Below, one piece after another: positions 5,429 through 26,939 of a DNA stretch of 64,000 bases. Positions within the stretch are counted from its first letter, which is position 1; every line of letters begins with the position of its first letter. This stretch comes from Brevundimonas sp. Lineage in GTDB: Bacteria > Pseudomonadota > Alphaproteobacteria > Caulobacterales > Caulobacteraceae. The notes beneath the pieces are model-generated. The model ran no database searches and was not told where the DNA came from. It saw nothing but the letters and a program-made list of their open reading frames with translations. The stretch covers positions 50,325-114,324 of the forward strand of contig NZ_JBIIOP010000009.1 of NCBI RefSeq assembly GCF_044336875.1, in the 5' to 3' direction. The position numbers and the translations under genes were made by a program.

Positions 5429-5454
5429 AAGGGGCGGCGCGGGCCGCCCCTTTT
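5429..5454. terminator. Intrinsic terminator between convergent genes
   Basis: AAGGGGCGGC-GCGG-GCCGCCCCTT followed by TT. Confidence 0.8.
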
Positions 5455-5458
5455 CACG

Positions 5459-7441
5459 TCAGCGCGGCGTGATGCGGATCGCCGCTCCGCCGCTGGGCTT
5501 CAGCCTCAGGGTCAGGGTCGTCCCCGACTCGACCGTCTGGGTGGAAATCGCCGTCCGCTGCGGCGCCTCAGTGTCGGCGTAGACAGTCGCCTCGAACCGG
5601 CCGCGGCCCAGGAAATCCAGCGGCAGGCTCACGGTGCGGCCGTCCTCATCGGTCATGGCGCCGACATACCAGTCGCGCCCCTTGCGACGGGCGAGAACGA
5701 TCGACTGGCCGATCTCGCCCGAGATGAACCGGGTTTCGTCCCAGGTCGTCGGAACCTGGCCGATGAAGGCGGTCTCGGGCTGGCCGGCATAGGCGTCCGG
5801 CGTATCGGCGACCGTCTGCAGCGGGCTTTCATAGACGACGAACATCGCCAGGCCGTGCGCCCGGGTGGTCATCACGGTCGGCAGCAGGAACCGCCACTGG
5901 AAGGTCTCGGGCGTCTGGTTGCCGAAACCGCCGGGCGTATAGTCCATCGGCCCCAGCAGCATGCGCGTATAGGCCAGGGTCACGTTGTGCCGGGCTGTGA
6001 TCCGGCTGGACCATTTGTTGTTTTCCGCCCCCAGCACGCCTTCCTGGGTGATGAAGTTGGGATAGGTGCGCGTCAGGCCGGTCGGATGGAAGGCGCCGTG
6101 CAGATTGACCATGAGATGTCGCTGCGCCGCCTGGGCCAGCAGCCGGTGGTACCAGTCGACGATCATCTGATCGTCGCGATCCATGAAGTCCACCTTGATC
6201 CCGGCTATGCCCCAGGCCTGGTACTGGTCCAGGGCGGCGTCGAACTGGGCGTCCAGCGCCTTCCAGTTCAGCCACAGGAACAGGCCGACGCCCCTGGACC
6301 GGCCGTAGGCGACCAGGCCGGGAATGTCGATGTCGGGCGCGGTCTGGGTCACATCCACGCCGGGCCGCACCACGCCGCCGCCGCCGGCGCCGCGATACCA
6401 CCCCTCGTCGATGGTGACATACTGCAGGCCGTTGGCGGCCGCGAAGTCGATGAAGGCCCTGAAGGTGGCGGTGTTCATGCCGCTGTCCGGCACGGCCGTA
6501 ATCTGGCCGCCGTTCCACCAGTCCCAGGCCGACTTGCCGGGCCTCACCCAGGCGGAGTCGAAGGCCGCCGGTGCGCTGAGGTCGGTGATCAGGGTGGATT
6601 CGATCAGGTCGCCCGCGTGGTCGCCCACCATGACCACCCGCCACGGCGTCTCCAGATCCTGTCCGACCCGCGCCGTCGCCACCACGGCCGGAACCCCGCC
6701 GGGCGAATCCGGTCTCGGGGCCAGTTTGGCCTGCACCCCCAGGCCGCCGTCACCGCGTCCCGACAGGTAAAGGCCCGGATAATTCTTCAGGTCGGCTTCG
6801 GCGATGGCGAAGGCGGGGCCTCCCGCCGTGGTCTCGCACACCAGCGGGGCGTCATAGGCGTTGTATTCGCGAATGCGCGAGGCGGGGACAGGATCGAATT
6901 CGCCCTCGTGGCTGGAGTTGAACCGGCCCAGGTTCAGGCCCCAGCAGCCGTAGTCGGACGGGAAGGCGAACTGGGTGTTCTCCGCCACCACCCCCAGGGG
7001 CGCGTCTGGCCGGGCCGGCACGCGATAGCGGAAGGCGACCCCGTCGTCATAGGCGCGCATCACCAGGACCATGTCGGGCCCGTCGCGGCCCGAAGCCGGC
7101 GTCAGCATGGTCTCGCGCCAGGCCGAGCGCACATGGGACCTCCGTCCCAACAGGGGGTAGTCGTCCAGACCCTCGCGCACAGGCCCGGCGACGAAGATCT
7201 CGTCACCGCCGACCGTGACCCGGTTCTCCAGGGTCAGGCCGATGTCCGACGGCGCGATCACCGTGCGGCCGTCGCGTGCGACGGACAGGGCCGGCTTGCC
7301 GTCGACGGTCTCCACCCGGATGGTCAGCCGGCCGTCGGGCGAGGTCAGTTCGACAGGGTCGGCCAGGGCGACCGACGATAGGCCCGTCGCCAGGCAGGTC
7401 AGGGCTGCGCCGCACAGCAGCCGGGCGAGGGAAGGGGTCAT
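5459..7441 (-). CDS. Glycoside hydrolase family 97, retaining-type (alpha-galactosidase-like)
   Basis: Sec signal; GKSAWDWW, IDEGWY, GIKVDFMDRDDQ (Asp nucleophile of retaining GH97), NLHG..PTG..RTYPN and GPMDYTPG. Confidence 0.92.
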   Translation of the reverse strand: MTPSLARLLCGAALTCLATGLSSVALADPVELTSPDGRLTIRVETVDGKPALSVARDGRTVIAPSDIGLTLENRVTVGGDEIFVAGPVREGLDDYPLLGRRSHVRSAWRETMLTPASGRDGPDMVLVMRAYDDGVAFRYRVPARPDAPLGVVAENTQFAFPSDYGCWGLNLGRFNSSHEGEFDPVPASRIREYNAYDAPLVCETTAGGPAFAIAEADLKNYPGLYLSGRGDGGLGVQAKLAPRPDSPGGVPAVVATARVGQDLETPWRVVMVGDHAGDLIESTLITDLSAPAAFDSAWVRPGKSAWDWWNGGQITAVPDSGMNTATFRAFIDFAAANGLQYVTIDEGWYRGAGGGGVVRPGVDVTQTAPDIDIPGLVAYGRSRGVGLFLWLNWKALDAQFDAALDQYQAWGIAGIKVDFMDRDDQMIVDWYHRLLAQAAQRHLMVNLHGAFHPTGLTRTYPNFITQEGVLGAENNKWSSRITARHNVTLAYTRMLLGPMDYTPGGFGNQTPETFQWRFLLPTVMTTRAHGLAMFVVYESPLQTVADTPDAYAGQPETAFIGQVPTTWDETRFISGEIGQSIVLARRKGRDWYVGAMTDEDGRTVSLPLDFLGRGRFEATVYADTEAPQRTAISTQTVESGTTLTLRLKPSGGAAIRITPR

Positions 7442-8970
7442 GCGTGTTCCTTCGCCACGGGAAGGTCCGCGCGGCAGTTCCTGTCGATGAATTGCTGGTG
7501 CGTCGGCATGGCCGCGACACCGCTCTGGATGACGGTTCGGATCTGGGCCAGTCGGGCGGCCATCTGAGAGGCGGGAATCTGGTCGGCCATGGGGTCGTGG
7601 CCCTGCGGCGTGATCCCCTGGCCCAGCATGACCGCAACCCAGCTGGTGTGGGCGAACAGGTCCTCATGACGGCCCATCACGCGTCCGCGCGATCGGAACA
7701 GGTCGATCCGTGCCTTCAGGCTGTCGGGGATGTCTGTCGCGCGCACATGCCGCCAGAACTCGGAATCGTCCCGCTCTCCGGCGTGGTAGTGCAGAATGAT
7801 GAAGTCGCGGGCGTGCTCGTACTCCTCGCGCATCAGGGCGTTGTACTTGTCGATGTCGGCCTGATCGAAACGGCGGTCCGGGAACAGGGACATCAGGGTG
7901 GTCACCCCGCTCTGGATCAGGTGGATGCTGGTCGATTCCAGCGGTTCCAGGAAGCCGGAGGCCAGGCCGAGGGACACGACATTCTTGTTCCAGGCCTTCC
8001 TGCGCCGCCCCGTCACGAAGCGCAGCGGTCGAGGATCGGCCAAGGGCTTTCCGTCCAGATTGGCCAGCAGGGTGTCGCGCGCCGCTTCGTCGCTGGTGAA
8101 GGCGCTGGCGTAGACATGGCCGTTGCCGGTGCGATGCTGCAGCTGGATCCGCCATTGCCAGCCGGCGTCATGCGCCGTCGAGCGGGTGTAGAGCGTGGGC
8201 GCCCCCACCGCTTCGCAGGGTACGGCCAACGCCCGATCCATCGGCAGCCAGTGGGACCAGTCCTCGTATCCCGTCTGCAGCGCCTGTTCGATCAGCAGGC
8301 CGCGGAATCCGGAGCAGTCGATGAACAGGTCGCCCTCGATCCGCCGTCCGTCGTCCAGGACCACGGCCTCGACGAAGCCGGTCTCGGCGTTCAGGGCCAC
8401 GTCGACGATCTTGGCCTCGATCCGGTTCACGCCGCGCGCCATGGCCAGTTCGCGCATGAACCCGCCGTAAAGGCCGGCGTCGAAATGATAGGCGTAGGCC
8501 ATGCGTGAATGGACATGGCGCGGGTCCTCGGCCGTGCGGGTGAACCGCCCCGCCTTCATCGCCATGATCGGCAGGGAATAGGCGTCGATCTCGCCGACGC
8601 CCGGCTGGTCGCGCAGCCTCAGCCAGTGCTGATGGAATTGAACACCCTCCAGGTCGGCGCCATAGGTTCCGAACGGGTGTATGTACTCGTGGCCCAGCCG
8701 GCCCCAGTTCCGGAACTGTATGCCCAGCTTGTAGGTGGCCTGGGTGCGGCGGACGAATTCGTTCTCGTCCATCCCCAGAAGCCGGTTCAGCGTCAGGATC
8801 GGCGGGATGGTCGCCTCTCCGACCCCGACCGTGCCGATCTCGGGCGATTCGATCAGATCGATTGCGGCATAGCCGTGCGCCAGGTTCTTCGAGATGACGG
8901 CGGCCGCCATCCAGCCGGCGGTGCCGCCGCCGACGATGACGATCCGTCTGATCCTCTGGTCTTCCGACAT
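7438..8970 (-). CDS. Tryptophan halogenase-family flavin-dependent halogenase
   Basis: GGGTAG FAD motif, GVGEAT, TQATYKLGI (catalytic Lys), WQWRIQ (variant of WxWxIP), GFLEPLESTSI. No signal peptide. Confidence 0.93.
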   Translation of the reverse strand: MSEDQRIRRIVIVGGGTAGWMAAAVISKNLAHGYAAIDLIESPEIGTVGVGEATIPPILTLNRLLGMDENEFVRRTQATYKLGIQFRNWGRLGHEYIHPFGTYGADLEGVQFHQHWLRLRDQPGVGEIDAYSLPIMAMKAGRFTRTAEDPRHVHSRMAYAYHFDAGLYGGFMRELAMARGVNRIEAKIVDVALNAETGFVEAVVLDDGRRIEGDLFIDCSGFRGLLIEQALQTGYEDWSHWLPMDRALAVPCEAVGAPTLYTRSTAHDAGWQWRIQLQHRTGNGHVYASAFTSDEAARDTLLANLDGKPLADPRPLRFVTGRRRKAWNKNVVSLGLASGFLEPLESTSIHLIQSGVTTLMSLFPDRRFDQADIDKYNALMREEYEHARDFIILHYHAGERDDSEFWRHVRATDIPDSLKARIDLFRSRGRVMGRHEDLFAHTSWVAVMLGQGITPQGHDPMADQIPASQMAARLAQIRTVIQSGVAAMPTHQQFIDRNCRADLPVAKEHA

Positions 8971-9035
8971 TGTGGTCCTCCCCGACCGCGAACGTCTGGC
9001 GCGATACGTCGCCGCGCCATTGTCGTCCTAAAAAA

Positions 9036-9049
9036 TGGTACCGCTACCG
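9036..9049. promoter_or_regulatory. LacI/XylR-like operator TGGTACCGCTACCG
   Basis: 12/14 to the symmetric TGGTAGCGCTACCA, in the divergent halogenase/TBDR region. An adjacent GAAAAC-A-GTTTTC palindrome lies at 9049-9061. Confidence 0.55.
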
Positions 9050-9188
9050 AAAACAGTTTTCTTTCTATGAAACTTGTTGCATCCTTGAAATCGGGTCAAG
9101 CGGAACGCAGGCCCGATTGTCTTGGGAGAGATGTCGTCCAGCGCGCCTAGAGAGCGCGCGAGGCATCAGAGGGGAAGGGAAGAGACTC

Positions 9189-12074
9189 ATGTCTCGTATC
9201 ACTCGCGCCAACCGCTTCGCACTGCTGTGCGGCGCGTCCGTCCTGTCGTTATCGGCCATGGCCGCACCGTCCCTCGCTTCGGCGCAGGAAACGTCCGCTC
9301 CCGTTCCGGCCAGCGAGGACGACCAGTCCACCGAAGTCGGCGAGGTCGTGGTCACGGGCCTCCGGGCCAGCCTGGCCTCGGCCCAGTCGATCAAGAAGAA
9401 TTCAGAGCAGTTCGTCGATTCCATCACGGCGGTGGATATCGGTCGCCTGCCCGACGTCAATGTCGCCGAGGCGCTGCAGCGCGTCTCGGGGATCCAGATC
9501 ACGCGCAACTATGGCGAAGGCTCCGGCATCGCCATTCGCGGCCTGACCAACGTGCGTTCCGAGCTCAACGGGCGTGACATCTTCAGCGCCAGCGGCGGCC
9601 GCGGCCTGAGCTGGGAAGAGGTCGGCGCTGATCTTCTGGGCGGGGTGGACGTCTACAAGAACCCGTCGGCCGAGATGATCGAAGGCGGCCTGGGCGGCAC
9701 CATCAACCTGAAGACCCGCCTGCCGTTCGATGCGCCGGGTCGCGTCCTGTCGGCCAGCACCGCCTACACCCATTACGATCTGGCCAATGACGACGGCTAC
9801 AACGCCTCCTTCCTGGCCAGCGACCGCTGGCAGACCTCGGCGGGCGAGTTCGGCGCCCTGCTGAACATGTCCTACGGCGAGACCTCGTTCCGCCAGGATC
9901 TCGACGTGGTCGAGCCCTATCTGGTGCGCACCGACGTGCCGGGCTTCGTCGGTCAGGAGATCGCCGTGCCGAACGGCGGCGGGTTCAAGGTCGGCTTCGG
10001 CGACCGCGAACGCTTCAGCGTGGCGACCGCGCTGCAATGGCGCCCGAACGACAAGACCGAATTCTATCTGCAGGCCCTGCGGACGGAATACACCTTCCAC
10101 GACAATGGTCTGTCCTTCTTCGCCTATGGCGGCAACGGCGTGCCGCTGGACCTGGCGCCGGGCGCGGCCTTTACGGTCGAGGACGGTATCGCCACCTCGG
10201 GCTCCTTCATCAATCCGGGCGTGGATGCGGTCACCTTCGCGACGACCCGCGAAACCGAGACGACCGACATCGCCATCGGGGGCAAATGGCGCCCGACCGA
10301 CCGTCTCCAGATCTCCGCCGACCTGCAGTATATCAATTCCAAGGTCGATCAGCAGACGATGAACCTGACGGCCAGCGTCCTGACCAACACCTCGGGACCC
10401 AGCTTCGATGACGACAGCGATCCGCTGACGCCCAATATACCGATGTTCCCGGGCAACTACGTCTTCAACTTCGACACCCGTCCCTCGATCCCTGAGTTCG
10501 GGACGTCGAACGGCTATTACGGCGACCTCGACAACTATGGTCTGACCGCCGTTCTTCCCTATGCCGAGAAGAACGACGCCGAGAGCTGGGCCGGTCGCGC
10601 CGACATGCGTTGGGACTTCGAGGAAGGTGGCTTCTTCAAGGACTTCCGCGCCGGTGTTCGCGTCACGGACCGCACCGCCGTCAACCGGTCGACCACCTAC
10701 GGCACCTGGACCGCGATCGGTACGACCTGCGCCAACTGGTCCAGCCCCGCCGGCTGCTATCGTCTGGCCGACTTCCCTCAGGTCGCCGAGCAGTTTCCGT
10801 TCCGCAACAGCTTCCTGAACGGCGACGGCCAGAACGTCTTCGGCGACGTCTGGATGTTCGGCCTGCGTCAGGTGGGCGATCCGCAGGCGGTGTTCGACTT
10901 CCTGAACGGCGCGCCGTTCAACCAGAATATCGGCTTCCGCTCGTTCGACGATCCGACCGCCCAGATCTCCAACGTGTCGGAGACGACCTATGCCGGCTAC
11001 GGCGTGGTTCGTTTCGCCTCCAACTTCCTGGGCAAAGACTGGGACGGCAACTTCGGCGTCCGCATCGTCAAGACCGAGTCCGCCTCTGACGGTTTCGAGA
11101 CCATCACTTACCGTGATCCGAGCGGCACGAGCGGCACGCCGACCAATCTGACGATCGTCACTCCGATCGTCGGCAACAACAAATACACCGACATTCTTCC
11201 AAGCCTGAACTTGCGGATGTTCCTGTCGCCTGAACTGCAGCTGCGTTTCGCCGCCTCGCAGAACGTGGCCCGTCCGGACTTCGGTCAGCTGAACGCCAGC
11301 TACAGCATCAGCCCGACGTATGCGAACTCGGGCGACATCCTGCCGATTCCGGGGCAGCGCGGAACCGGCACGGCCGTCGGTAATCCGCTGCTGGATCCGC
11401 AGCGCGTTACCGCGCTGGACTTCGCGGTCGAATGGTATTTCTCGCCGGTCGGCTTCGTCTATGCGACGGCTTTCAAGAAGGACATCAAGGACCTGTTCTT
11501 CAACGTCACGGCGGTGGAGAACTACAACCTGCCAGGTCTCGGCACGGTGCCGTTCAACATCACGCGCTTGAAGAACGTGGACGAGGGCACGCTGGAGGGT
11601 TTCGAGGTCGGCGGTCAGCGCTTCTTCGACTTCCTGCCGTCGCCGTTCGACGGTCTGGGCGTCCAGGCCAACTACACCTTCATCGACTCGAACGCGGCGA
11701 CGGTCGCGGCCAACGCCCAGACGGGCGGCTCTGAAATCTCGGTGCCGATCCAGGGGCTGTCGGAGAACAGCTACAACCTCGTGCTGCTGTACGAGAAGTA
11801 CGGCTTCAACGCCCGTCTCGCCTACAACTGGCGCGACGACTTCCTGCAGACCACGACCGGCGTCGGCACCGGCCAGCTGCCGATCTTCGGCAAGGCCTTC
11901 GGCGTTCTGGACGGTTCGATCAGCTACGACTTCAACGAGCGGCTGGCGGTCACCGTGGATGCGCAGAACATCCTGAACCAGGAATCGCAGACCTATCAGA
12001 TCACCGAGGATCGTTATCGCGACTATCAGCTCGATGATCGCCGGTTCAGCATCCGGGTTCGCCTCCGCTACTAG
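9189..12074 (+). CDS. TonB-dependent receptor (Xanthomonas/Caulobacter carbohydrate type)
   Basis: Signal peptide, TonB box EVVVTG, plug motif DIGRLPDVNVAEALQRVSGIQI, C-terminal aromatic strand (RVRLRY). Start moved to ATG 9189 behind GGAAGAG. Confidence 0.95.
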   Translation: MSRITRANRFALLCGASVLSLSAMAAPSLASAQETSAPVPASEDDQSTEVGEVVVTGLRASLASAQSIKKNSEQFVDSITAVDIGRLPDVNVAEALQRVSGIQITRNYGEGSGIAIRGLTNVRSELNGRDIFSASGGRGLSWEEVGADLLGGVDVYKNPSAEMIEGGLGGTINLKTRLPFDAPGRVLSASTAYTHYDLANDDGYNASFLASDRWQTSAGEFGALLNMSYGETSFRQDLDVVEPYLVRTDVPGFVGQEIAVPNGGGFKVGFGDRERFSVATALQWRPNDKTEFYLQALRTEYTFHDNGLSFFAYGGNGVPLDLAPGAAFTVEDGIATSGSFINPGVDAVTFATTRETETTDIAIGGKWRPTDRLQISADLQYINSKVDQQTMNLTASVLTNTSGPSFDDDSDPLTPNIPMFPGNYVFNFDTRPSIPEFGTSNGYYGDLDNYGLTAVLPYAEKNDAESWAGRADMRWDFEEGGFFKDFRAGVRVTDRTAVNRSTTYGTWTAIGTTCANWSSPAGCYRLADFPQVAEQFPFRNSFLNGDGQNVFGDVWMFGLRQVGDPQAVFDFLNGAPFNQNIGFRSFDDPTAQISNVSETTYAGYGVVRFASNFLGKDWDGNFGVRIVKTESASDGFETITYRDPSGTSGTPTNLTIVTPIVGNNKYTDILPSLNLRMFLSPELQLRFAASQNVARPDFGQLNASYSISPTYANSGDILPIPGQRGTGTAVGNPLLDPQRVTALDFAVEWYFSPVGFVYATAFKKDIKDLFFNVTAVENYNLPGLGTVPFNITRLKNVDEGTLEGFEVGGQRFFDFLPSPFDGLGVQANYTFIDSNAATVAANAQTGGSEISVPIQGLSENSYNLVLLYEKYGFNARLAYNWRDDFLQTTTGVGTGQLPIFGKAFGVLDGSISYDFNERLAVTVDAQNILNQESQTYQITEDRYRDYQLDDRRFSIRVRLRY

Positions 12075-12158: not shown

Positions 12159-13802
12159 ATGATCAGCAACCGCATGTTCAGGACCTGCACGGCGGGGCTC
12201 GCGCTCGCCGCAACCCTGGCGACGGGCGGCGCCTTCGCCGCCGAACCCATTCCCCAGTTCGTCACCCGCGAGGGCCGCCACGCCCTGATGGTCGACGGCG
12301 CGCCCTTCACCATCCTGGGCGGACAGGTCAACAACTCCTCCAACTATCCAGCCCCCCTGGCCCAGGCCTGGCCGGCCCTGCGATACATGGGCGCCAATAC
12401 GGTCCAGATTCCTCTCGGCTGGGAGCAGATCGAGCCGGAGGAGGGGCGTTTCGACTTCTCCTTCGTGGATCACGCCATCGAACAGGCCCGCGCCAACGAC
12501 ATGCGCGTCGTCTTCCTGTGGTTCGCCACCTGGAAGAACACGGCCCCGGCCTACGCCCCCGCTTGGGTCAAGCTGAACCCCGAGCGGTTCCCGCACCTGA
12601 TCGAGAAGGACGGCAAGGAAAGCTACGCCCTGTCGCCTTATGGCGCTGAGACCCTGGCCGCCGACGCCCGCGCCTACGCCGCCCTGATGCGCCACATTCG
12701 CCAGGTGGACGAGCGCCAGCGCACCGTCATCATGATGCAGCCCGAGAACGAGGTCGGCACCTACGGCCCCGTGCGCGACTATTCCCCGGCTGCGCGCGCC
12801 GCCTTCGCCGCCCCCGTGCCTCAGGCCCTGCTGGACCGTACAGGCAAGTCGCCCGGAACCTGGGCCGAGGTGTTCGGCAAGGACGCGGACGAGTTCTTCC
12901 ACGCCTGGTCCATCGGCCATTACGTCGGCACGGTCGCTGCGGCCGGCAAGGCGGAATATCCGCTGCCCATGTACGTCAACGCCGCCCTGCGCGACGCCAT
13001 CAACGACCAGAACCCGGCGACCTACGCCTCGGGCGGCCCGACCTGGAACGTCATCGAGGTATGGCAGGCCGCCGCCCCGTCGATCGACTTCCTGGCGCCC
13101 GACATCTACACGCGCAAGTCGATCGAGTATGAAGCCCACCTGAACCGTTACGGCCGTCCGGACAACGCCCTTTTCGTCGCCGAGACCGGCAGCGACACCC
13201 AATACGCCCGCTATCTGTTCGAGACCCTGGGGCGGGGCGGCATAGGCTTCTCGCCGTTCGGCATCGATTACACCGGCTATTCCAACTATCCGCTGGGGGC
13301 CAAGGCGATCACCGAGGAGACGCTGGTCCCGTTCCGCGACCTGTATCGGCTGATCGCCCCCTGGCAGCGGACCTGGGCCCGCCTGTCCTTCGAGGGCAGG
13401 GTCTGGGGCGCCGCCGAGCCTGACGACCGCAAGCCCGAGGTCATCGACCTGGGCGACTGGACCGCCACCACCGGCTATCAGCGCTGGCAGTTCGGGGCCA
13501 CTTCCATGGCCATCGATCCGAACGACGTCCCGGCCGCCACGGCCCAGCCGAACGGCGCGATCGCCATCGCCGAGATCGAGCCCGGTCAGTTCATCCTCGC
13601 CGGCCACAACATCCGCATCGACTTCGCCGCCAAGCCCGCGACCGACGGCAAGCGCCGCATGGTCCTGCGCATCGAGGAAGGCCATTTCGACCCCGCCGGG
13701 AAATGGGTGTTCGAACGCATCTGGAACGGCGACCAGGTCGACTACGGCCTCAATTTTTCCGACCGACCGCAGCTGCTGCGCGTCGTCACCGCCACCTACT
13801 GA
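12159..13802 (+). CDS. GH35 beta-galactosidase with DUF5597-type C-terminus
   Basis: Sec signal; [22 protein letters not shown] (acid/base), [14 protein letters not shown] (nucleophile). Same type as xyloglucan-locus beta-galactosidases. Confidence 0.85.
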
Positions 13803-13826
13803 CCTGTCTGTAAAGCGAGCGCCCCC

Positions 13827-16763
13827 ATGACCTCGACCCTCGCCCGCCGCCTGATGCTGGCCGCCCTGATGATTGCGCCCCTGAGCGCCTGCGCCGGATC
13901 AGGCCTGATGGACAGCGCCTCCGCCGGCGCTCTCGAACAGGCCGCCTTCGAGCGTATCCCCGCCGGGATCGTCATCGCCCCGACCGAGGGCGCGGCCCGC
14001 CGTGTTCGCCTGGAGGTCTATGGCCCCGAGACCATTCGCGTCACGGCGACCGAAAACGCCGATCTGGAACTGCCGGCCAGCCTTATGGTCACGGCCCAGC
14101 CCTCGACCACGACCCCGTTCGAGGTCGAGACCCGCGGCGAACTGGTCGTGTTGAAGACCGCCGAGGCCACGGCCGAGGTCTCGCGCCGGACCGGCGCCGT
14201 CCGCTTCCTCGACGAGAACGGCCGGGAGGTGCTGAAGGAACGGGCCGGCGTGCGCGAACTCAGCCCCGTCACCGTCGAGGACCAGGCCGGAGATCACCGT
14301 TTCCTGGCCACCCGCCAGGTCTGGGACAGCCCTGCCGACGAGGCCTTCTACGGCCTGGGTCAGCATCAGCAGGGCGTGATGAACTACAAGGGCCGCGACG
14401 TTCAACTGGCCCAGCACAATATGGACGTGGGCGTCCCCTTCGTCGTCTCCAGCCGCAACTACGGCCTGCTGTGGGATAATAACTCGATCACCCGGTTCGG
14501 CGATCCGCGGCCCTATGGCATGATCTCGGACCAGTTCATCGTCCGCGACGCCACCGGCCGCTTCGGTGGTCTGACCGCCAGCTACTATCAGGACGATCAA
14601 CTCAAGGTTCAGCGCCAGGAGACGGAGGTGAACTACGAGTTCATCCGCGAATGGTCGCGCTGGCCCGAAGGCTTCAAGTCGCAACCGGGCCAGCCGGTCC
14701 AGACCGGCGACATGGGCAAGCCGGGCCAGGCGGGCGTCAGGGTCGTCTGGGAAGGCACGCTGGAAACCGCCGAGGCCGGCCTGCACAAGTTCCGCCTCTA
14801 TTCGTCGGGCTACGCCAAGGTCACCATCGACGGCAAGGTGGTCGAACAGAACTGGCGCCAGAACTGGAACGCCTTCGACCATGATTTCCAGGTCGAGATG
14901 GCCGCCGACACGCGCGTGCCGATCAAGATCGAGTGGACGCCGGAGGACGGCTATATCTCGCTGCGCCACATGGATCCGCTGCCGGCCGCAGACCAGGGCG
15001 CATTGAGCCTGGCCTCGGAAGTCGGCACGGCCATCGACTACTACTACGTCGGCGGCGACGACATCGACGGCGTCATCTCCAACTATCGCGGCCTGACCGG
15101 CAAGTCGGTGATGCTGCCCCGCGCCGCCTACGGCTTCTGGCAGAGCCGCCAGCGCTACAACACCCAGGACGAGGTCGTCGACGCCGTGCGCGGCTATCGC
15201 GAGCGCGGCCTGCCGATCGACATGGTGGTGCAGGACTGGTTCTACTGGCCCGAGAACGCCTGGGGCTCGCACCAGTTCGACCCCGCCCGCTATCCGAACC
15301 CGACCCAGATGGTGAAGGACGTTCACGACATGAACGCCAACATCATCATTTCGGTCTGGCCGAAATTCTATCCGACCACCGACCATTACAAGCAGCTGGA
15401 CGCCATTGGCGGCATGTATACGCGCAACGTCGACGTCGGTGCGCGCGACTGGGTCGGCCCCGGTTACGCCAACAGCTTCTACGACCCCTATCTGCCGGCG
15501 GCGCGCGACCTTTACTGGAAGCAGATGTCCGACAGTTTCAAGGGCATGGGCTTCGACGGCTGGTGGCTGGATTCGGTCGAGCCGGACATGCACTCCAACC
15601 TCGACTTCGCCGAACGGACCCTGCGCATGGGCCCGACCGCCAACGGTCCCGGCGCCTATGTGTTCAACTCGTATCCGCTGATGAACGCCGAGAACGTCTA
15701 TCGCCATTTCCGGGCCGAGCATGACGACCAGCGGACCACCATCCTGACCCGCTCCGCCTGGGGCGGTCTGCAGCGCACCGGTTCGGTCCTGTGGTCGGGC
15801 GATGTGGTCGCGCGATGGGACAATCTGCGCGACCAGATCTCGGCCGGCGTCAACGCCGGCCTGTCGGGACTGCCCAACTGGACCCACGACATCGGCGGAT
15901 TCTCGGTTGAGAGCCGTTATTCCAACACCGCCGGCATGAAGCCCGAGGACAAGGCCGAGTGGGACGAGCTGCAGCTGCGCTGGTTCCAGTTCGGGGCCTG
16001 GTCGCCGATCTTCCGTTCCCACGGGGAGTTCCCGCTGAGAGAAGTCTATAATCTGGCCCAGCCCGGCACCGACTACTACGCCGCCTACGCCGAGCAGCTG
16101 CGCACCCGCTACCGGCTGATGCCCTATATCTACAGCCTGGCCGGCGACACCTATCTGCGCGACGGCACCATTATGCGCGGTCTGGTCATGGACTTCCCGT
16201 CCGATCTGAAGGCGCGCGACATCGACGACCAGTACATGTTCGGCCACGCCCTGCTCGTGGCGCCCGTCACCGAGTACAAGGCGCGGGGCCGCTCGGTCTA
16301 TTTCCCGGCCGGGGCCGAATGGTACGACCTGCTGACCGGCCAGAAGTACGCCGGCGGCCGATCGACCACCGTCGCGGCCGCCCTGGGCAAGATCCCGGTC
16401 TTCGTTCGCGCGGGCTCGATCCTGCCGACCGGACCGGCCATCACCTATACGGCCGAGAAGCTGGACGGCCCCTTGACCCTGGTGGTCTATACCGGCGCCG
16501 ACGGGTCGTTCTCGCTCTATGAGGACGAGGGCCGGTCCTACGCCTACGAGCGCGGCGAGTTCTCGACCATCCCGATGCGCTGGAATGACGCGACCGGCGT
16601 CCTGACCATCGGCGCCCGCGCCGGGGCCTATGCGGGCATGCCGATGAACCGCACGATCAATGTGCGCTTCGTCAGCGGACCGGGTGCGGATGTCGGCGAT
16701 TTCGACGCCGCTCCGGCGAAGACGATCCAGTACACGGGCGAGGCCGTCGAGGTCCGCCGTTAG
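13827..16763 (+). CDS. GH31 alpha-xylosidase with PA14 insertion, lipoprotein
   Basis: Lipobox LSAC; WLDSVEPD nucleophile, LWSGD acid/base, WTHDIGGF. PA14-like insert (VVWEGTL...HKFRLYSSGYAKVTIDG) as in Cellvibrio Xyl31A. Confidence 0.92.
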   Translation: MTSTLARRLMLAALMIAPLSACAGSGLMDSASAGALEQAAFERIPAGIVIAPTEGAARRVRLEVYGPETIRVTATENADLELPASLMVTAQPSTTTPFEVETRGELVVLKTAEATAEVSRRTGAVRFLDENGREVLKERAGVRELSPVTVEDQAGDHRFLATRQVWDSPADEAFYGLGQHQQGVMNYKGRDVQLAQHNMDVGVPFVVSSRNYGLLWDNNSITRFGDPRPYGMISDQFIVRDATGRFGGLTASYYQDDQLKVQRQETEVNYEFIREWSRWPEGFKSQPGQPVQTGDMGKPGQAGVRVVWEGTLETAEAGLHKFRLYSSGYAKVTIDGKVVEQNWRQNWNAFDHDFQVEMAADTRVPIKIEWTPEDGYISLRHMDPLPAADQGALSLASEVGTAIDYYYVGGDDIDGVISNYRGLTGKSVMLPRAAYGFWQSRQRYNTQDEVVDAVRGYRERGLPIDMVVQDWFYWPENAWGSHQFDPARYPNPTQMVKDVHDMNANIIISVWPKFYPTTDHYKQLDAIGGMYTRNVDVGARDWVGPGYANSFYDPYLPAARDLYWKQMSDSFKGMGFDGWWLDSVEPDMHSNLDFAERTLRMGPTANGPGAYVFNSYPLMNAENVYRHFRAEHDDQRTTILTRSAWGGLQRTGSVLWSGDVVARWDNLRDQISAGVNAGLSGLPNWTHDIGGFSVESRYSNTAGMKPEDKAEWDELQLRWFQFGAWSPIFRSHGEFPLREVYNLAQPGTDYYAAYAEQLRTRYRLMPYIYSLAGDTYLRDGTIMRGLVMDFPSDLKARDIDDQYMFGHALLVAPVTEYKARGRSVYFPAGAEWYDLLTGQKYAGGRSTTVAAALGKIPVFVRAGSILPTGPAITYTAEKLDGPLTLVVYTGADGSFSLYEDEGRSYAYERGEFSTIPMRWNDATGVLTIGARAGAYAGMPMNRTINVRFVSGPGADVGDFDAAPAKTIQYTGEAVEVRR

Positions 16764-16774
16764 TCGGCCATACG

Positions 16775-16805
16775 CCGCTCATCCCCGCCCATCGGGGATG
16801 AGCGG
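16775..16805 (+). other. Perfect 13-bp intercistronic hairpin
   Basis: CCGCTCATCCCCG-CCCAT-CGGGGATGAGCGG; no U-tract. Confidence 0.7.
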
Positions 16806-16827
16806 GTTCAGATCACAGGAGGCGCGG

Positions 16828-18798
16828 ATGCGCTCGTTGCTGCTCACCGCCGTGGCGGCCGCCGTCCTTGCGACGACGACAGCCGTCCCCGTTCAGGCCC
16901 AGAACACGGAGGTGGTGAACACGGCCGCCGGGCCTCTGCTGGACGCGATGTTCCAGGACCACGCCGTGCTTCAGCGCGATCGGCCGGTGGCCGTGTGGGG
17001 CAGGGCGGCGCCGGGCGCCTCCGTCACCGTTGCGTTCGACCAGGTCCAGGTTCAGGCCGTCGCCGACGCGGACGGGGGCTGGCGCACCCATCTGCCGTCC
17101 CTGCCCGCCGGCGGGCCCCACGTCCTGACCGCCCGCAGCGGCGGCTCCACCCAGACGGTGGCGGACGTCATGGTCGGCGATGTCTGGCTGTGCTCGGGCC
17201 AGTCGAACATGGAGTATCAGCTCCGTCAGGTCACCAACGCCGACATCGAAATCAACAATGCACGCGACGAGGGCCTGCGCCTGTTTCTGGTCGGTCGGTC
17301 CAGCAAGCCGGCCCCGTCGACCTCGACCGCGCCCGTGGGCCAGTGGCGTCTGACCACGCCGGACAGCGCGCGCGACTTCTCCGCCGCCTGCTATTTCATG
17401 GGCCGCGACCTGCGCAAGGCGCAGACCGTTCCGATCGGCCTGATCGCCGCATCCTGGGGCGGATCGATCATCGAGGACTGGCTCAGCCGACAGACCCTGA
17501 CCGATCTGGGCGGCAATCAGCAGGCCCTGGCCGCCCTGGCCGCCTACGCCCGGTCGCCTGAGGACGGCGAGGCGCTCTGGCGCGACATCACCCTGGCCTG
17601 GTGGAAGGACAATGATCCGGGCACGAAACAGGGCTGGAACGGCGAACGGTTCGACGACCGCGCCTGGGCGCCCATCCCGGCGGAGGGAGCCTGGGAAAAC
17701 ACCGTCCCGGCCTTGGCCGGCTTCGACGGCGTGGTGTGGATGCGCAACACGGTCCAGGTGACGGCCGCTCAGGCCCGTCAGCCGGCGACCCTCGAACTCG
17801 GCCCGGTCGACGACGTCGACACCACCTGGGTCAACGGACGCTGGATCGGCGGCGGCCAGGGGTGGGATACGCCCCGCACCTACAGTCTGCCGGCCGGAAC
17901 CTTGACGTCCGGCCGCAACAGCATCGCCGTCGGAGTTCTGGACACCAATGGCGGCGGCGGGGCCTGGGGACCGGCGTCGGCGAAACGGATCGTGTTTGCG
18001 GACGGCTCGACCGTCTCCCTGTCCAGCGGCTGGCGTCACCAGGTTTCGGCCCAGGTCGCGTCCCTGTCCTCCCTGCCGCGAACGCCCTGGATCGGCGGCA
18101 GCGGCATGACCACTCTCTACAATGGCATGATCGTCCCCCTGGGCGCCTACGGCCTGAAGGGCGCCGCCTGGTATCAGGGCGAGTCCAACGCCGGCGACGC
18201 GCCCGGCTATTCGAAACTGTTGCCGGCCTTGTTCGCCGACTGGCGCGCTCGGTTCGAGAACCCGGACCTGGAGATGCTGGTGGTGCAGCTGGCCAACTAC
18301 GGCCCGGCTGTGACCCAGCCGACCGACAGCCTGTGGGCGGCCCTGCGCGAAAGCCAGCGCCGCACCGTCGCCGCCGATCCGCACGCCGGGCTGGCGCTCG
18401 CGATCGACATCGGCGACCGCTACGACATCCATCCGACCAACAAGCAGGAGGTGGGTCGCAGGCTGGCGTTGGAGGCCTTGCGTCTGGCCGGCCTCTCCAC
18501 CGTCTCGTCGCCGCAGCCCGTCGCCATCGAACGCGGCGCCGATGGGGTGCATGTTCGCTATGCCGCCGGGACGGCCCTGAGCCTGTACGGCTTCAACCGC
18601 CCGGTCGGGTTCGAACTGTGCGACGCGGAGGGCGCCTGCCGCTTTGTCGACGCCACCCTGACCGGGGATCAGATCGTGCTGCCGTCCGCCCGGCCGAGCG
18701 ACGTCAAGGTGCGGTTGTGCTGGGCGGAAAGCCCGATCTGCAACCTGTATGGTCCGTCAAACCTGCCGGCGGTTCCGTTCGAGGCGCCGATCGTCTGA
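16828..18798 (+). CDS. Sialate O-acetylesterase-like SGNH esterase (CE20 xyloglucan acetylesterase-like)
   Basis: Sec signal; CSGQSNME catalytic Ser, WYQGESN, DIGDRYDIHP (Asp-His). SGNH domain is split by an inserted domain. Start moved to ATG 16828. Confidence 0.88.
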   Translation: MRSLLLTAVAAAVLATTTAVPVQAQNTEVVNTAAGPLLDAMFQDHAVLQRDRPVAVWGRAAPGASVTVAFDQVQVQAVADADGGWRTHLPSLPAGGPHVLTARSGGSTQTVADVMVGDVWLCSGQSNMEYQLRQVTNADIEINNARDEGLRLFLVGRSSKPAPSTSTAPVGQWRLTTPDSARDFSAACYFMGRDLRKAQTVPIGLIAASWGGSIIEDWLSRQTLTDLGGNQQALAALAAYARSPEDGEALWRDITLAWWKDNDPGTKQGWNGERFDDRAWAPIPAEGAWENTVPALAGFDGVVWMRNTVQVTAAQARQPATLELGPVDDVDTTWVNGRWIGGGQGWDTPRTYSLPAGTLTSGRNSIAVGVLDTNGGGGAWGPASAKRIVFADGSTVSLSSGWRHQVSAQVASLSSLPRTPWIGGSGMTTLYNGMIVPLGAYGLKGAAWYQGESNAGDAPGYSKLLPALFADWRARFENPDLEMLVVQLANYGPAVTQPTDSLWAALRESQRRTVAADPHAGLALAIDIGDRYDIHPTNKQEVGRRLALEALRLAGLSTVSSPQPVAIERGADGVHVRYAAGTALSLYGFNRPVGFELCDAEGACRFVDATLTGDQIVLPSARPSDVKVRLCWAESPICNLYGPSNLPAVPFEAPIV

Positions 18799-18811
18799 AC
18801 GGGGGGCGGGC

Positions 18812-20434
18812 TCAGACGAGCCCCGCGCCTCGCAGCCGCAGCGCCGGGGCGACCGCGACCGGTCGCTCCGCCGGCAGGTCGACGACCAGACCTTCATCGG
18901 TCTGACGGAAGGGCAGGGCGCCGCCGCCCAGCAGTTCGACCGCCGCGACGCGGCCCGCCTGGGGCGTCAGAGCGCGCATCACCATTCGCCCGTCCTCGGG
19001 CCAGTCCAGCGCAAAGGCGTACAGGGCCTGGCCTCTTGTCGTGAAGCGGATGTCCTGGCCGGTCCACGGCCGCGCGGCGCCTTCGCCGTGCATGCCGCCC
19101 ACGACGGTCGTCGGGCCCTCGCCATAGATGCGCCAGGGCCGGGTCTCGAAGATCGCCTCGCCATTGACCTTCATCCAGACGGCGATGTCCGTCAGGATCT
19201 GACGCTCGTCGCTGTCGATGGAGCCGTCGCCCCGCTGCGGGATGTTCAGCATGAGGTTGCCGTTCTTGGACACCACGTCGACCAGGCGCTGGATCACGCT
19301 GTGCGCCGGCACATAATAGTGACTGGTGTAGCGGGCGCGATTGTAGTGCCAGTCGCCGATGCAGGTGTCGGTCTGCCACGGCTCGGGCTTCAGGTTCTCC
19401 GAGAAGCCGCGCTCGACGGTCTCGACGATCCCCTTGCGCTGGCGCTCGTCCAGCCGCTTGCCGTTCACGACCGGCAGTTCGCCCCGCCACTGCAGCGAGG
19501 CGTTGTAATATTCCGCCGTCGCTTCCAGCCCGTAACGCCCCAGAGGCAGCTGGTAGTTGTCGAAATAGACCATGTCCGGCTTGTACTTGGTGATCAGGTC
19601 GCGCTGACGCGCCACCCAGGATCGCACGAAGGCCGGATTGTTCGCCGGCGGCGTCTCGATCCACTGGCCGTCGCGCGCGTCGTGCCAGGCGTTCATCTCG
19701 GCGATCGAGGCGATCCCCTCCGGCGGGGCGAAGGTCGGGCCGGTATAGAGTTCCTGCGGGTCCAGTCCGTCCCACCATTTGCCGGAGCCGTCCGCCTTCG
19801 TCAGGCGCGCGGCGTCATAGCGGACGCTCTTGAGCGGCCCTTCGGCGTCATAGCCATAGGCCGTCTGCCACCAATGCCACGCATGGGCCGCGTGGTTGGA
19901 TACCGCGAACCTCAGGCCCCGCGCGCGCACGGCCTTTTCCCAGGTCCCGACGATGTCGCGTTTCGGCCCGACGCGCATGACGTTCCACGCATGATGGGCG
20001 CTGTCGAACAGGTCCAGATTGTCGTGGTGGTTGGCCATGGACATGATGTAGCGGGCGCCGGCCGCCTGATAGAGGTCCAGCAGTCCCTCGGGATCCCACT
20101 GGTCGGCCTTCCACTGGTCGATGAACTCCATGAACCCGACCTGGCTGGGGTGGCCGTAGGCGGCGACATGGTGTTCGTAGAAGGGGTTGCCCTGGATATA
20201 CATCTGGCGGCCGTACCAGTCGCCGAACTCCGGGACGCACTGGGGGCCCCAGTGGGACCAGATGCCGAACTTGGCGTCGCGGAACCAGTCCGGCGTCCGG
20301 TAGCCGTCGATCAGACTGTCCCAGGTCGGCTTGAACGGCCCTGCCGCCGTTGATCCGCCCGGCGTAGTGGCGCAAGCGCCCAGCATCGAGGCCGAGGCGC
20401 CCGCGCCCAGAAGTCCGCGTCGTGACAGGTTCAT
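18812..20434 (-). CDS. GH29 alpha-L-fucosidase, Tat lipoprotein
   Basis: SRRGLL plus LGAC; WFRDAKFGIWSHWG, HHDNLDLFDS, PDMVYFD (nucleophile), VSKNGNLMLNI. Confidence 0.92.
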   Translation of the reverse strand: MNLSRRGLLGAGASASMLGACATTPGGSTAAGPFKPTWDSLIDGYRTPDWFRDAKFGIWSHWGPQCVPEFGDWYGRQMYIQGNPFYEHHVAAYGHPSQVGFMEFIDQWKADQWDPEGLLDLYQAAGARYIMSMANHHDNLDLFDSAHHAWNVMRVGPKRDIVGTWEKAVRARGLRFAVSNHAAHAWHWWQTAYGYDAEGPLKSVRYDAARLTKADGSGKWWDGLDPQELYTGPTFAPPEGIASIAEMNAWHDARDGQWIETPPANNPAFVRSWVARQRDLITKYKPDMVYFDNYQLPLGRYGLEATAEYYNASLQWRGELPVVNGKRLDERQRKGIVETVERGFSENLKPEPWQTDTCIGDWHYNRARYTSHYYVPAHSVIQRLVDVVSKNGNLMLNIPQRGDGSIDSDERQILTDIAVWMKVNGEAIFETRPWRIYGEGPTTVVGGMHGEGAARPWTGQDIRFTTRGQALYAFALDWPEDGRMVMRALTPQAGRVAAVELLGGGALPFRQTDEGLVVDLPAERPVAVAPALRLRGAGLV

Positions 20435-22704: not shown

Positions 22705-22749
22705 GCCGCGTCTCCCCATGGCCGTCGGGGCGTCTGCCGGCCCCTTATC

Positions 22750-22763
22750 TGTTAGCGCTACCT
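22750..22763. promoter_or_regulatory. XylR-type operator TGTTAGCGCTACCT
   Basis: 13/14 to the Caulobacter XylR operator TGTTAGCGCTACCA (recalled consensus). Lies between divergent GH74 and GH3. Confidence 0.75.
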
Positions 22764-22990
22764 CATAGCAGGTTGACATCATTGTCATAGGTGCATCAAG
22801 TTGCGCTGGTAAAAATCAACGTCGGCAAACGACGTGTCGGGAGCGAGGCTCGAGTTCACACGGATTTCGCCGCTTCCGGCGCGTTTTGGCGCCTGATCTT
22901 TTGCACCCTGAGCGAACTTCCGGTGCGGTCATCTGGCCGCACCGGCTTTTCGCGCCAAAGTTTCTCGCCCGCCGACTGGACGGACCCGAC

Positions 22991-25543: not shown

Positions 25544-25565
25544 CGTCGGGTTGAAGCGAGAGAAG

Positions 25566-26939
25566 ATGATGACCCAGGCCTCCGAAGACCGTTTCACCCT
25601 GAGCCGCCGCGCGGTCCTGGGCTCGACCGCCGCCCTGGCCCTGACGGCCGGTGCGGCGTCGGCCGCCAGCCGGACGGCGCCGAGCCGCGGCTTTGTCACG
25701 CGTGAGGGAATCGGACTGAAACTGGACGGAAAGCCGTACCGGTTCGTGGGCGCCAACGCCTGGTATCTGGCCTGGCTGGGCGCCGACGCCGACTATGGGG
25801 ATCATGGGCGTCTGACGCGCGAGCTGGACGCCCTGGCGGCGGACGGCGTGACCAATCTGCGGGTCGGCGCCTCGGCCGAGCTCTCGCCGCTGAACAACTC
25901 GGTCCGTCCCGCCTTCCGGGACCAGACCGCAGCCTATAACGAGACCCTGCTCGCCGGCCTGGACCGCACCCTGGTCGAGATGGGGCGGCGCGACATGAAG
26001 GCGGTCCTGTATCTGACCAACTTCTGGGAATGGTCGGGCGGGATGATGACCTATCTCTCCTGGGTCAACGGCGGTCGCTACATCAACATGAACGACCCGG
26101 CCCATCCGTGGCCCGAGTTCGCCGACTTCAACGCCGACTTCTATCGCAGCGATGAGGCTGTCGCCCTCTATCACGACTATGTCCGGGCCGTGGTCGGCCG
26201 GACCAACACGATCAGCGGCATGGCCTATGCCGAGGATCCGACCATCATGGCCTGGCAACTGGCCAATGAGCCGCGCGCAGGCGGCGGCGCGCAGGTCGCC
26301 CTGGACAATCTTCCCGCCTTCTACGCCTGGATCAACGGCACGGCCCGGCTGATCAAGTCGCTGGCGCCACGCCAGCTGGTCTCGACCGGGGGGGAGGGGC
26401 TGAAGGGCTCGTCCGAGCGCGCCGAGGTGGTGATGGAAAGCTGCCGTTCGCCCGACATCGACTATCTGACCGCCCATATCTGGCCGGGCAACTGGGGCTG
26501 GCTGGACCGCAAGGACATGGCGGGAACCGACGCCCGCGCCCGCGCCATGGCCATCGACTATGTGAACCAGCATGTCGGCTTCGCCCGCCAACTCGACAAG
26601 CCGCTGGTGATCGAGGAATTCGGCTATCCCCGCGACGGCGATTTGTATGATCCGTCCGTGCCCACGGTCCTGCGCGACGGCTTCTACGCCGACATCCATG
26701 CCGCAGTGCTGGCGGATGCGCGGGCGGGCGGACCTCTGGCCGGCTCGAACTTCTGGGCCTGGAACGGCGAGGGCCGCACACGCAATCCCGACTTCCGCTT
26801 CCACGACGGCGACAGCGCCTGGCTGGGCGATCCGCCGCACGAGCCCCAGGGCTGGTACGGCGTGTTCGACAGCGATCGTTCGACCCGGACCCTGGTCCGC
26901 GATCAGGCGAGAGCCCTGGCCGAAATCCTCGCGGGCTGA
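25566..26939 (+). CDS. GH5 beta-mannosidase/mannanase (GH5_7, Cellvibrio Man5A-like), Tat-exported
   Basis: SRRAVL; GANAWY, NFWEWSGG, WQLANEPR (acid/base), VIEEFG (nucleophile), GDPPHEPQGWYGVFD C-terminal loop. Confidence 0.9.
   Translation: MMTQASEDRFTLSRRAVLGSTAALALTAGAASAASRTAPSRGFVTREGIGLKLDGKPYRFVGANAWYLAWLGADADYGDHGRLTRELDALAADGVTNLRVGASAELSPLNNSVRPAFRDQTAAYNETLLAGLDRTLVEMGRRDMKAVLYLTNFWEWSGGMMTYLSWVNGGRYINMNDPAHPWPEFADFNADFYRSDEAVALYHDYVRAVVGRTNTISGMAYAEDPTIMAWQLANEPRAGGGAQVALDNLPAFYAWINGTARLIKSLAPRQLVSTGGEGLKGSSERAEVVMESCRSPDIDYLTAHIWPGNWGWLDRKDMAGTDARARAMAIDYVNQHVGFARQLDKPLVIEEFGYPRDGDLYDPSVPTVLRDGFYADIHAAVLADARAGGPLAGSNFWAWNGEGRTRNPDFRFHDGDSAWLGDPPHEPQGWYGVFDSDRSTRTLVRDQARALAEILAG

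Follow-up and report, generated by a model that had tools for sequence, protein, structure and literature searches.

A flavin-dependent halogenase adjoining a TonB-dependent receptor in a xyloglucan-type utilisation locus of Brevundimonas

Introduction

The DNA analysed here, referred to as the window, is a 64,000-nucleotide stretch from Brevundimonas sp. (assembly GCF_044336875.1, contig NZ_JBIIOP010000009.1, positions 50,325 to 114,324). Within a xyloglucan-type utilisation locus it carries a gene for a flavin-dependent halogenase, which lies between a glycoside hydrolase family 97 (GH97) gene and a divergently oriented gene for a TonB-dependent receptor. A first-pass annotation, made from the letters alone, had proposed that the halogenase and the GH97 enzyme form a unit and had called the arrangement an undescribed system. 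Comparison with homologous loci indicates a different unit, consisting of receptor and halogenase, and what was found adds one more example to an association that is known but unexplained, so that it is no new system; a neighbourhood that combines a receptor with one to three tryptophan halogenases, SapC and a JOR/JmjC protein was published by Iyer, Abhiman, de Souza and Aravind in 2010 (PMC2938197). Species-representative genomes hold at least 586 loci with a relative of the window halogenase. Among them the window is a minimal case: a single halogenase and a single receptor share a locus with a recognisable sugar operator, and a sister strain provides a natural swap of the allele. It offers an experimental handle on an old question, namely the role of these halogenases during polysaccharide scavenging. 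The closest similarity of the window is to Brevundimonas genomes; at the two nearest loci the halogenase protein is 92% identical and the DNA ~87–90% identical. The sequence was found in lake-water and other metagenome DNA runs; no RNA runs contained it.

The halogenase gene and its product

The halogenase gene (7438..8970, minus strand) encodes a protein of 510 amino acids that is assigned, from Pfam and PDB matches, motifs and the ratio of nonsynonymous to synonymous substitution rates (dN/dS), to the group C, non-tryptophan type exemplified by BrvH and Xcc4156. Its score for the Pfam family Trp_halogenase (PF04820) is 659 bits (cutoff 21), and residues 9–466 cover positions 1–457 of the 458-position profile. 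The third-position GC content of its open reading frame (0.87), like that of the GH97 reading frame (0.89), is of the coding type; genuine genes in the window, which has a G+C content of 67%, exceed 0.8 by this measure. The best PDB match is 9LUQ, an unpublished “tryptophan halogenase” (E 3e-163, 52% identity), followed by 6Y1W, which is Xcc4156 (E 1e-156, 51%), and 6FRL, which is BrvH (E 1e-146, 47.5%), while PrnA, RebH and PyrH rank lower, at E ~1e-80.

Motif conservation was assessed in an alignment of 125 homologues taken from the loci fetched for the survey described below. The flavin adenine dinucleotide (FAD) motif GGGTAGW occupies residues 14–20 as a GxGxxG element, each position of which is kept in 116–125 of the 125 sequences, and the element GVGEATIP (residues 49–56) is kept in ~92% or more. 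The catalytic Lys81 aligns with the Lys of the PrnA segment “gafKaaikf” and is conserved in 116/125, and Glu345, the second Glu of “EPLEST”, is conserved in 115/125; we take these residues to be the counterparts of PrnA Lys79 and Glu346, respectively. The WxWxIP motif reads WxWxIQ in the window protein (GWQWRIQL, residues 270–277), in which Gln276 takes the place of Pro while both Trp residues and the Ile remain. Of the other motifs, the group C forms ATIPPI and HPFGT are present, and the tryptophan-binding motifs (Trp1–Trp4 of PMC8269204) were not found. The region that aligns with YHGFESYS of the tryptophan halogenases reads HEDLFAHTSW and contains no YYHG...YS motif.

Selection on the gene was gauged against the two 92%-identical orthologues, which gave a dN/dS of 0.09–0.10 for the halogenase, 0.20 for GH97 and 0.16–0.18 for the receptor. 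Owing to this low ratio the halogenase gene is judged to be functional and constrained, and the residues specific to halogenation are retained. The first-pass annotation had raised the possibility that the protein is not a halogenase at all. This is hard to reconcile with the presence of Lys81, Glu345 and the FAD motifs in ~92% of the homologues, with a dN/dS of ~0.1 and with the in vitro halogenation carried out by relatives that share 47–52% identity.

The N-terminus, MSEDQRIRRIVIVGGGTAGW, leads directly into the FAD-binding Rossmann strand with its GxGxxG motif and has no signal peptide. We read the protein as cytoplasmic, as the first-pass annotation had done, because of this direct entry into the Rossmann fold and because the N-terminal Arg-Arg is not conserved in homologues. 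Export by the twin-arginine translocation (Tat) pathway, which the N-terminal RIRR might bring to mind, was considered and rejected: the Arg-Arg pair is missing from 9luq, BrvH and PrnA, and the residues that follow it form the Rossmann strand.

The GH97 gene and the operon junction

The GH97 gene (5459..7441, minus strand) encodes a protein of 660 amino acids with GH97_N, GH97 and GH97_C domains (Pfam) and a typical N-terminal signal peptide, MTPSLARLLCGAALTCLATGLSSVALA. Its nearest solved structure is that of the α-galactosidase BtGH97b (3A24/5E1Q; E 8e-108 over the full length with 3a24), the inverting α-glucosidase SusB reaching only E 1e-52. It is placed in the retaining α-galactosidase-like subgroup and is predicted to be periplasmic. 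The score against the NCBIfam equivalog model for retaining α-galactosidases, 456 bits, falls under the 800-bit cutoff, so that α-galactosidase specificity is putative.

The junction between the two genes (7438..7452, minus strand) can be read directly from the sequence. Plus-strand positions 7438–7441 read tcat, i.e., ATGA on the minus strand, in which the TGA stop of the halogenase overlaps the ATG start of GH97, and a Shine-Dalgarno-like element, AAGGAA (7452–7447), lies six nucleotides 5′ of that ATG within the 3′ end of the halogenase gene. The overlap reported in the first-pass annotation is thus real, and Pfam bears out the identities of both genes. An identical overlap of 4 nt is found in L001, L002, L019 and L021. 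Nevertheless, it is an ordinary feature without special meaning, the family's usual join to whatever gene follows, given that overlapping or nearly abutting junctions are the rule after halogenase genes: in homologous loci, same-strand junctions between a halogenase and the next gene have a median gap of 3 nt, and 42 of 90 overlap.

From this arrangement halogenase and GH97 are predicted to form a transcription unit of two genes, headed by the halogenase. A GC-rich hairpin (GGGGCGGC-gcgg-GCCGCCCC, then TTTT; 5431..5454, by direct reading) separates the dehydratase gene from the GH97 gene, which converge here, and is likely to mark the end of the halogenase-GH97 transcript as a bidirectional terminator. 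Scans of 5300–9300 for sigma-70 and terminator consensus sequences gave no matches and are uninformative for an alphaproteobacterium; the terminator scan missed the hairpin because it requires five T residues and only four are present.

The divergent control region

The receptor gene (9189..12074, plus strand) encodes a carbohydrate-type receptor with Pfam plug and β-barrel domains and a score of 666 bits against TIGR01782 (TonB-Xanth-Caul). It is separated from the halogenase gene by a divergent control region of 218 bp (8971..9188), the central part of which is conserved in related Brevundimonas. In this spacer lies a xyl-box-like operator of the LacI family, TGGTACCGCTACCG (9036..9049), which agrees with the xyl-box palindrome TGGTAGCGCTACCA in 12 of its 14 positions, in keeping with the divergent arrangement and XylR-like operator of the first-pass annotation. 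Equivalent sites with the consensus TGGTAGCGCTAnCA are found in the spacers of five related Brevundimonas loci (L001, L002, L008, L013 and L021), in which the same conserved stretch bears TGGTAGCGCTA(A/C/T)CA-type sites. A second site, TGTTAGCGCTACCT (22750..22763), also matching at 12/14 positions, is located 46 bp 5′ of a GH74-like gene in a second divergent promoter region. These two are the only sites in the window with two or fewer mismatches to TGGTAGCGCTACCA, against 0.07 expected by chance. An inverted-repeat finder applied to the spacer returned nothing; the operator is an imperfect palindrome.

The presence of two xyl-box-like sites in the two divergent promoter regions of the locus, where chance would supply 0.07, makes it probable that a XylR-like repressor of the LacI family controls the locus, including the halogenase-GH97 unit. 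The 14-bp operator bound by XylR has been described in Caulobacter (PMC7198004), and the Xanthomonas xyl-box is TGGTAGCGCTAACA (PMC10380989). In contrast to the window with its xyl-box-like sites, the xylA1/XyGUL operon of Xanthomonas (XyGUL, xyloglucan utilisation locus) is stated not to be regulated by XylR (PMC10380989).

Gene neighbours of homologous halogenases

The company kept by homologous halogenases was surveyed in 80 loci fetched from species-representative genomes, drawn from the at least 586 confirmed relatives and encoding halogenases with 52–92% identity to that of the window. Genes were called, families were assigned by profile searches and by Pfam searches on cluster representatives, and the counts rest on the 78 loci in which the halogenase was called. 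A TonB receptor stands directly beside a halogenase gene in 58 of the 78. Counted by what adjoins a halogenase gene on its 5′ side, there are 42 receptors on the same strand, 15 divergent receptors and 40 further halogenases. Receptors make up 57 of 141 immediate neighbours (40%), against 8 of 366 genes (2.2%) located three or more genes away (p ~5e-56). The neighbourhood check suggested in the first-pass annotation thus returned a strong enrichment of receptors next to halogenases, and carbohydrate-active enzymes (CAZymes) accompany them in at least 54 of the 78 loci; they include GH13 amylases and pullulanases (21 loci), GH10, GH115, GH43, GH32, GH27 and GH31. Carbohydrate TonB receptors adjoin homologues in Caulobacterales, Xanthomonadales/Lysobacterales and Alteromonadales, the orders originally named, and also in Sphingomonadales, Cellvibrionales and Burkholderiales.

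The gene downstream of the halogenase is far less constant. Just 6 of the 78 loci have GH97 as the next gene, four of them with the 4-nt overlap, and the GH97 proteins of L019 and L029, which lie within α-glucan loci, belong to another subfamily with 31–34% identity. The glycan targeted by the locus varies as well, since close halogenase homologues (56–58% identity) occur equally often in α-glucan/starch, xylan and fructan loci. A grouping of the halogenases by the glycan of their locus was sought and discarded: outside the 92% orthologues the relatives share 56–63% identity whatever the locus type, which leaves no signal at this resolution. The presence of close homologues in loci for chemically unrelated glycans makes a substrate specific to plant aglycones unlikely, and a decoration or aglycone of xyloglucan is similarly improbable as the substrate; the link would be to receptor-dependent uptake as such. 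Two ideas of the first-pass annotation, a substrate tied to plant glycans and a unit of halogenase and GH97, are accordingly at odds with the survey, and the partner that is replaced together with the halogenase is the receptor, as described in the next section.

Halogenase copy number ranges from 1 to 4 overall, with two to four tandem copies in 33 loci; up to four tandem paralogues follow a single receptor gene in L006, L009, L012, L070, L071 and others. Convergent halogenase gene pairs recur in the Oxalobacteraceae starch loci L030, L033, L051 and L062. Among accessory genes, DUF6445 is found in 12 loci (L018, L022, L037, L059 and L066 among others), where its protein of ~235 amino acids follows the halogenase; Cupin_8 occurs in 5 loci, and at least one (L061) has SapC. 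At the Caulobacter vibrioides locus L082, which has a receptor>halogenase pair, two of four RNA-seq assemblies have contigs that span the junction of receptor and halogenase, an observation of little weight given that contig depth does not measure expression and that DNA carry-over is possible. Within the halogenase gene, at 6100–6900, all four assemblies are interrupted or branch at identical points, and the loose ends there match other sequence; these breaks probably reflect assembly-graph collapse between the halogenase copies of that genome.

Replacement of the receptor-halogenase block in a sister strain

The same locus is present in B. intermedia CCUG 45022 (L021), and protein identities with the window were computed for it gene by gene. 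The flanking genes are well conserved, at 84–97%: the symporter and the dehydratase are 97% identical, the short-chain dehydrogenase/reductase (SDR) 91%, GH31 89% and GH97 86%. The receptor, in contrast, is only 38% identical, and the two halogenases of L021 share 59% and 50% identity with that of the window. A sliding DNA comparison gave the same picture, with identities of mostly 79–95% in the flanks, 65–74% in the halogenase gene and 74–82% in GH35, and with the receptor almost unaligned. The divergent block, at ~7200–13800, takes in the halogenase, the receptor and part of GH35. Against L001, the window DNA is ~77–96% identical throughout.

The nearest halogenases outside the species group, with 62–63% identity, come from two Sphingomonas loci (L003 and L007) and are accompanied by the nearest receptors (49–53%), which are closer to the window receptor than is the receptor at the syntenic position in the sister Brevundimonas. 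Given that L021 keeps the flanks and has a different receptor and different halogenases, receptor and halogenase behave as a pair that is exchanged together, and GH97 belongs to the stable flank. Judging from gene order across the survey and from this replacement, the conserved unit is the receptor with the halogenase, not the halogenase with GH97, and it recurs in alpha-, beta- and gammaproteobacteria, in glycan loci with many different specificities.

Relation to characterised halogenases and described neighbourhoods

BrvH from Brevundimonas sp. BAL3 (6FRL), Xcc4156 from Xanthomonas campestris B100 (6Y1W) and 9LUQ match the window halogenase over its full length with 47.5–52% identity. All four have in common the FAD motifs, the catalytic Lys and Glu, the ESTS/N variant of the halide site and the group C motifs (ATIPxI and HxFGx), and all lack the tryptophan-binding motifs. 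The window protein differs from the other three in having WxWxIQ instead of WxWxIP, and it is not a BrvH orthologue, since the two proteins come from one genus and yet share less than 50% identity. Indoles are brominated in vitro by BrvH and by the Xanthomonas enzymes, Xcc4156 among them, none of which accepts tryptophan; native substrates are known neither for BrvH nor for Xcc4156, and TonB receptors go unmentioned in the papers on both (PMC5945002, PMC7336383). No citation of the PDB codes 9LUQ, 9LTB and 9LU2 was found in the relevant papers searched.

The tryptophan halogenases PrnA, RebH, PyrH and Thal belong to the same Pfam family, align over most of their length and would share the same chemistry, in which FADH2, O2 and halide yield a hypohalous acid that goes on to the Lys and Glu pair. 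The window halogenase is set apart from them by a much lower identity and by the missing tryptophan-binding motifs, and no prnBCD-like or other biosynthetic genes are present in the window. More generally, no genes for nonribosomal peptide synthetases or polyketide synthases (NRPS/PKS), flavin reductase, SapC, JmjC-type cupin (Cupin_8) or DUF6445 were found among the window's genes, which agrees with the first-pass annotation; the sole cupin is a KduI isomerase. The window's genes likewise include none for Syn9-gp52-like dioxygenases.

The neighbourhood described by Iyer et al. in 2010 resembles the window in placing the receptor directly beside the halogenase and in its alpha- and gammaproteobacterial range, and the intact Rossmann fold and catalytic lysine of receptor-linked halogenases were already noted there (PMC2938197). 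Relative to that neighbourhood the window is a minimal version, with one halogenase and without SapC, JmjC or DUF6445, and its context is glycan utilisation under a sugar operator rather than siderophore-like biosynthesis. The papers of halogenase chemists omit the receptor context, and the prediction from comparative genomics in 2010 does not fit the glycan context. A search of the literature on halogenases with TonB receptors, polysaccharide utilisation and sugar uptake found no paper assigning a function, consistent with the view of the first-pass annotation that the receptor-linked halogenases have no known physiological role. When transposon mutants of a freshwater Sphingomonas were screened for colony morphology, a single hit, one insertion, fell in a gene annotated as “tryptophan halogenase” (PMC11340318).

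Proposed role and alternative explanations

The explanation we favour, and consider probable though far from assured, is that the window encodes a halogenase of the BrvH/Xcc4156 type, which forms a conserved unit with the receptor, is controlled by a sugar operator and carries out canonical chemistry on an aromatic substrate other than tryptophan. Under such a scheme, xylose or breakdown products of xyloglucan would probably release expression via the XylR-like repressor. The halogenase would take FADH2, probably from a housekeeping flavin reductase, and use O2 and Cl- or Br- to form hypohalous acid, which would be handed to Lys81 and Glu345. An electron-rich aromatic small molecule, not tryptophan, would then be halogenated. 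This substrate appears to be tied to receptor-mediated uptake generally and not to xyloglucan or GH97.

Several observations weigh against this explanation. The activity of the homologues is very low and was measured on surrogate substrates, BrvH reaching 2.5 mU/mg on indole with bromide preferred (PMC5945002), and the Xanthomonas enzymes only brominated the screening substrates (PMC7336383); such a leaning towards bromide is odd for freshwater or plant-associated bacteria. Gln at the Pro position of WxWxIP occurs in only 3 of the 125 homologues, which are taken to be the window halogenase and its two 92%-identical orthologues, and Pro is found in 114. No flavin reductase lies nearby, nor any gene able to supply or consume a halogenated product. 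No regulator was assigned to the operator, the window's only LacI-family gene (40609–41658) included, and both co-transcription and sugar induction are deduced from gene spacing and the in silico operator. All three TonB receptors in the window belong to TIGR01782, and two of them have no halogenase, so that the halogenase is not a general factor in receptor biogenesis and is not needed by every such receptor. As to the exchange of the pair, the co-replacement could partly be hitch-hiking of an adjacent gene, and GH35 on the other side of the receptor is partly affected too (75% vs 90%). Mirror-tree comparison of receptor and halogenase distances gave r = 0.42 overall, a value driven by close orthologues; for distant pairs r was 0.12, and the Spearman coefficient for the window's row was 0.03. 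Deep co-variation of the two proteins thus appears weak, and the mirror-tree gave no sign of deep co-evolution.

The proposal of the first-pass annotation, in which halogenase and GH97 are a functional pair acting on something co-imported with, or co-released from, plant glycans, such as an indole or phenolic aglycone that the glycosidase frees and that is halogenated or oxidised in the cytoplasm, could draw on the ATGA overlap, on a control region shared with the receptor, on the recurrence of the pair in 6 of 78 loci (four with the same overlap) and on the fact that the locus targets cell-wall glycans of plants. It is nonetheless unlikely: these six loci are few and two of them, L019 and L029, have GH97 proteins of the other subfamily; equally close homologues occur in starch, xylan and fructan loci that have no aromatic decoration in common; a signal peptide on GH97 and none on the halogenase places the two proteins in different compartments; and GH97 stays 86% identical in L021, where the halogenase is replaced. 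Less likely still is the view of Iyer et al. that receptor-linked halogenases help to make a halogenated, siderophore-like metabolite derived from amino acids, which the adjacent receptor re-imports (PMC2938197). The neighbourhood of receptor, halogenases, SapC and JmjC on which it was built is documented, and the same accessory genes were recovered here (DUF6445, Cupin_8 and, in L061, SapC). Against it stand the lack in the window of SapC, JmjC, DUF6445, NRPS or any other scaffold-building gene, a receptor of TIGR01782 type set among glycoside hydrolases, a sugar-type xyl-box in the control region and the CAZymes of most homologous loci. The adjacency might also be meaningless, the halogenase being a selfish or drifting passenger with a tendency to insert next to TonB receptor genes, as its highly variable copy number, its turnover within conserved loci and the want of a coherent pathway around it would allow. 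Strong purifying selection, conserved catalytic residues, a place in the operon that is consistent in three proteobacterial classes, either 3′ of the receptor or divergent from it, and a conserved operator in orthologous spacers make this highly improbable.

Two further alternatives take the tie to the receptor as their starting point. The halogenase might target a peptide or protein, either the partner receptor or another envelope protein before its export, or it might act as a non-halogenating flavoprotein in receptor-dependent uptake. The pairing with the receptor is tight and independent of the glycan type, and the pair is replaced together. JmjC-type (Cupin_8) proteins, whose superfamily is treated as peptide modifiers in PMC2938197, accompany the halogenases in some loci. 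BrvH is poor on small surrogates and has an active site described by its authors as open enough for larger substrates (PMC5945002), and MibH provides an example of a group C enzyme that acts on peptides (PMC8269204). This alternative is purely conjectural and is held to be unlikely: the halogenation-specific Lys and Glu are conserved, two TIGR01782 receptors of the window have no halogenase, and deep co-variation is weak. A mobile two-gene module of receptor and halogenase in proteobacterial glycan-uptake loci, in which the receptor defines the substrate, whether an aromatic compound entering through it or a polypeptide of the receptor or envelope itself, is somewhat easier to entertain and yet is also held to be improbable. 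If it were correct, flavin-dependent halogenases would have a role in nutrient uptake or at the envelope, outside natural-product biosynthesis, and the block swap between sister strains would be a result of diversifying selection on a matched pair.

Remaining genes of the locus and its surroundings

Downstream of the receptor, the region 12159..26939 is assigned from its domain content to the remainder of the xyloglucan-type utilisation locus, with the enzyme set of the Xanthomonas type. On the plus strand lie genes for GH35 (12159–13802; Pfam and NCBIfam), for GH31 with a PA14 insert (13827–16763; Pfam) and for a SASA/CE20-like esterase (ending at 18798; Pfam). They are followed on the minus strand by a GH29 fucosidase (18812–20434; Pfam) and a BNR/sortilin protein that is GH74-like (20431–22704; Pfam), the GH74 assignment resting on the BNR/sortilin repeats alone; the actual start of this gene appears to be at 22704, compared with 22788 for the longest open reading frame. 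The plus strand then continues with GH3 (22886–25543; Pfam) and a GH5 enzyme resembling Man5A (25512–26939; PDB 1uuq). The latter reading frame, which has a Tat-like signal, SRRAVLGSTAALALTAGAASA, gave no Pfam or NCBIfam match; it matches Cellvibrio Man5A (PDB 1uuq, E 2e-110) and exo-β-mannosidases. Considered alongside the α-galactosidase-like GH97, this Man5A-like GH5 suggests that the locus may also handle substrates of the galactomannan type.

The likeness to the Xanthomonas XyGUL (Vieira et al., 2021; PMC8245568) extends to the TonB transporter, the GH74-type, GH31 and GH35 enzymes, the fucosidase and the SASA/CE20-type acetylesterase. The window differs in that its fucosidase is of GH29 type and not GH95, and in that it adds GH3, the Man5A-like GH5, GH97 and the halogenase, the last three of which are unlisted among the XyGUL components (PMC8245568).

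On the 5′ side of the GH97 gene in the window lie genes for a dehydratase, an SDR, an IclR regulator and a sodium-solute symporter. This block (174–5411), in which the dehydratase is of the ILVD/EDD family, shares 87–97% protein identity with related Brevundimonas, where a 2-keto-3-deoxy-galactonokinase gene follows the symporter-to-dehydratase block. It resembles a sugar-acid pathway of the oxidative (non-phosphorylative) kind, for a monosaccharide that the locus would release. Beyond the xyloglucan-type genes, at 27440–41658, a cluster for hexuronate and pectin catabolism contains no halogenase. Its genes encode UxaC, an oxidoreductase of the mannitol dehydrogenase family (28960–30426), an altronate dehydratase, a TIGR01782 receptor, a pectate-lyase-like protein, a KdgK-like kinase, a KduD-like SDR, KduI, an RpiB-like isomerase and the LacI regulator mentioned above.

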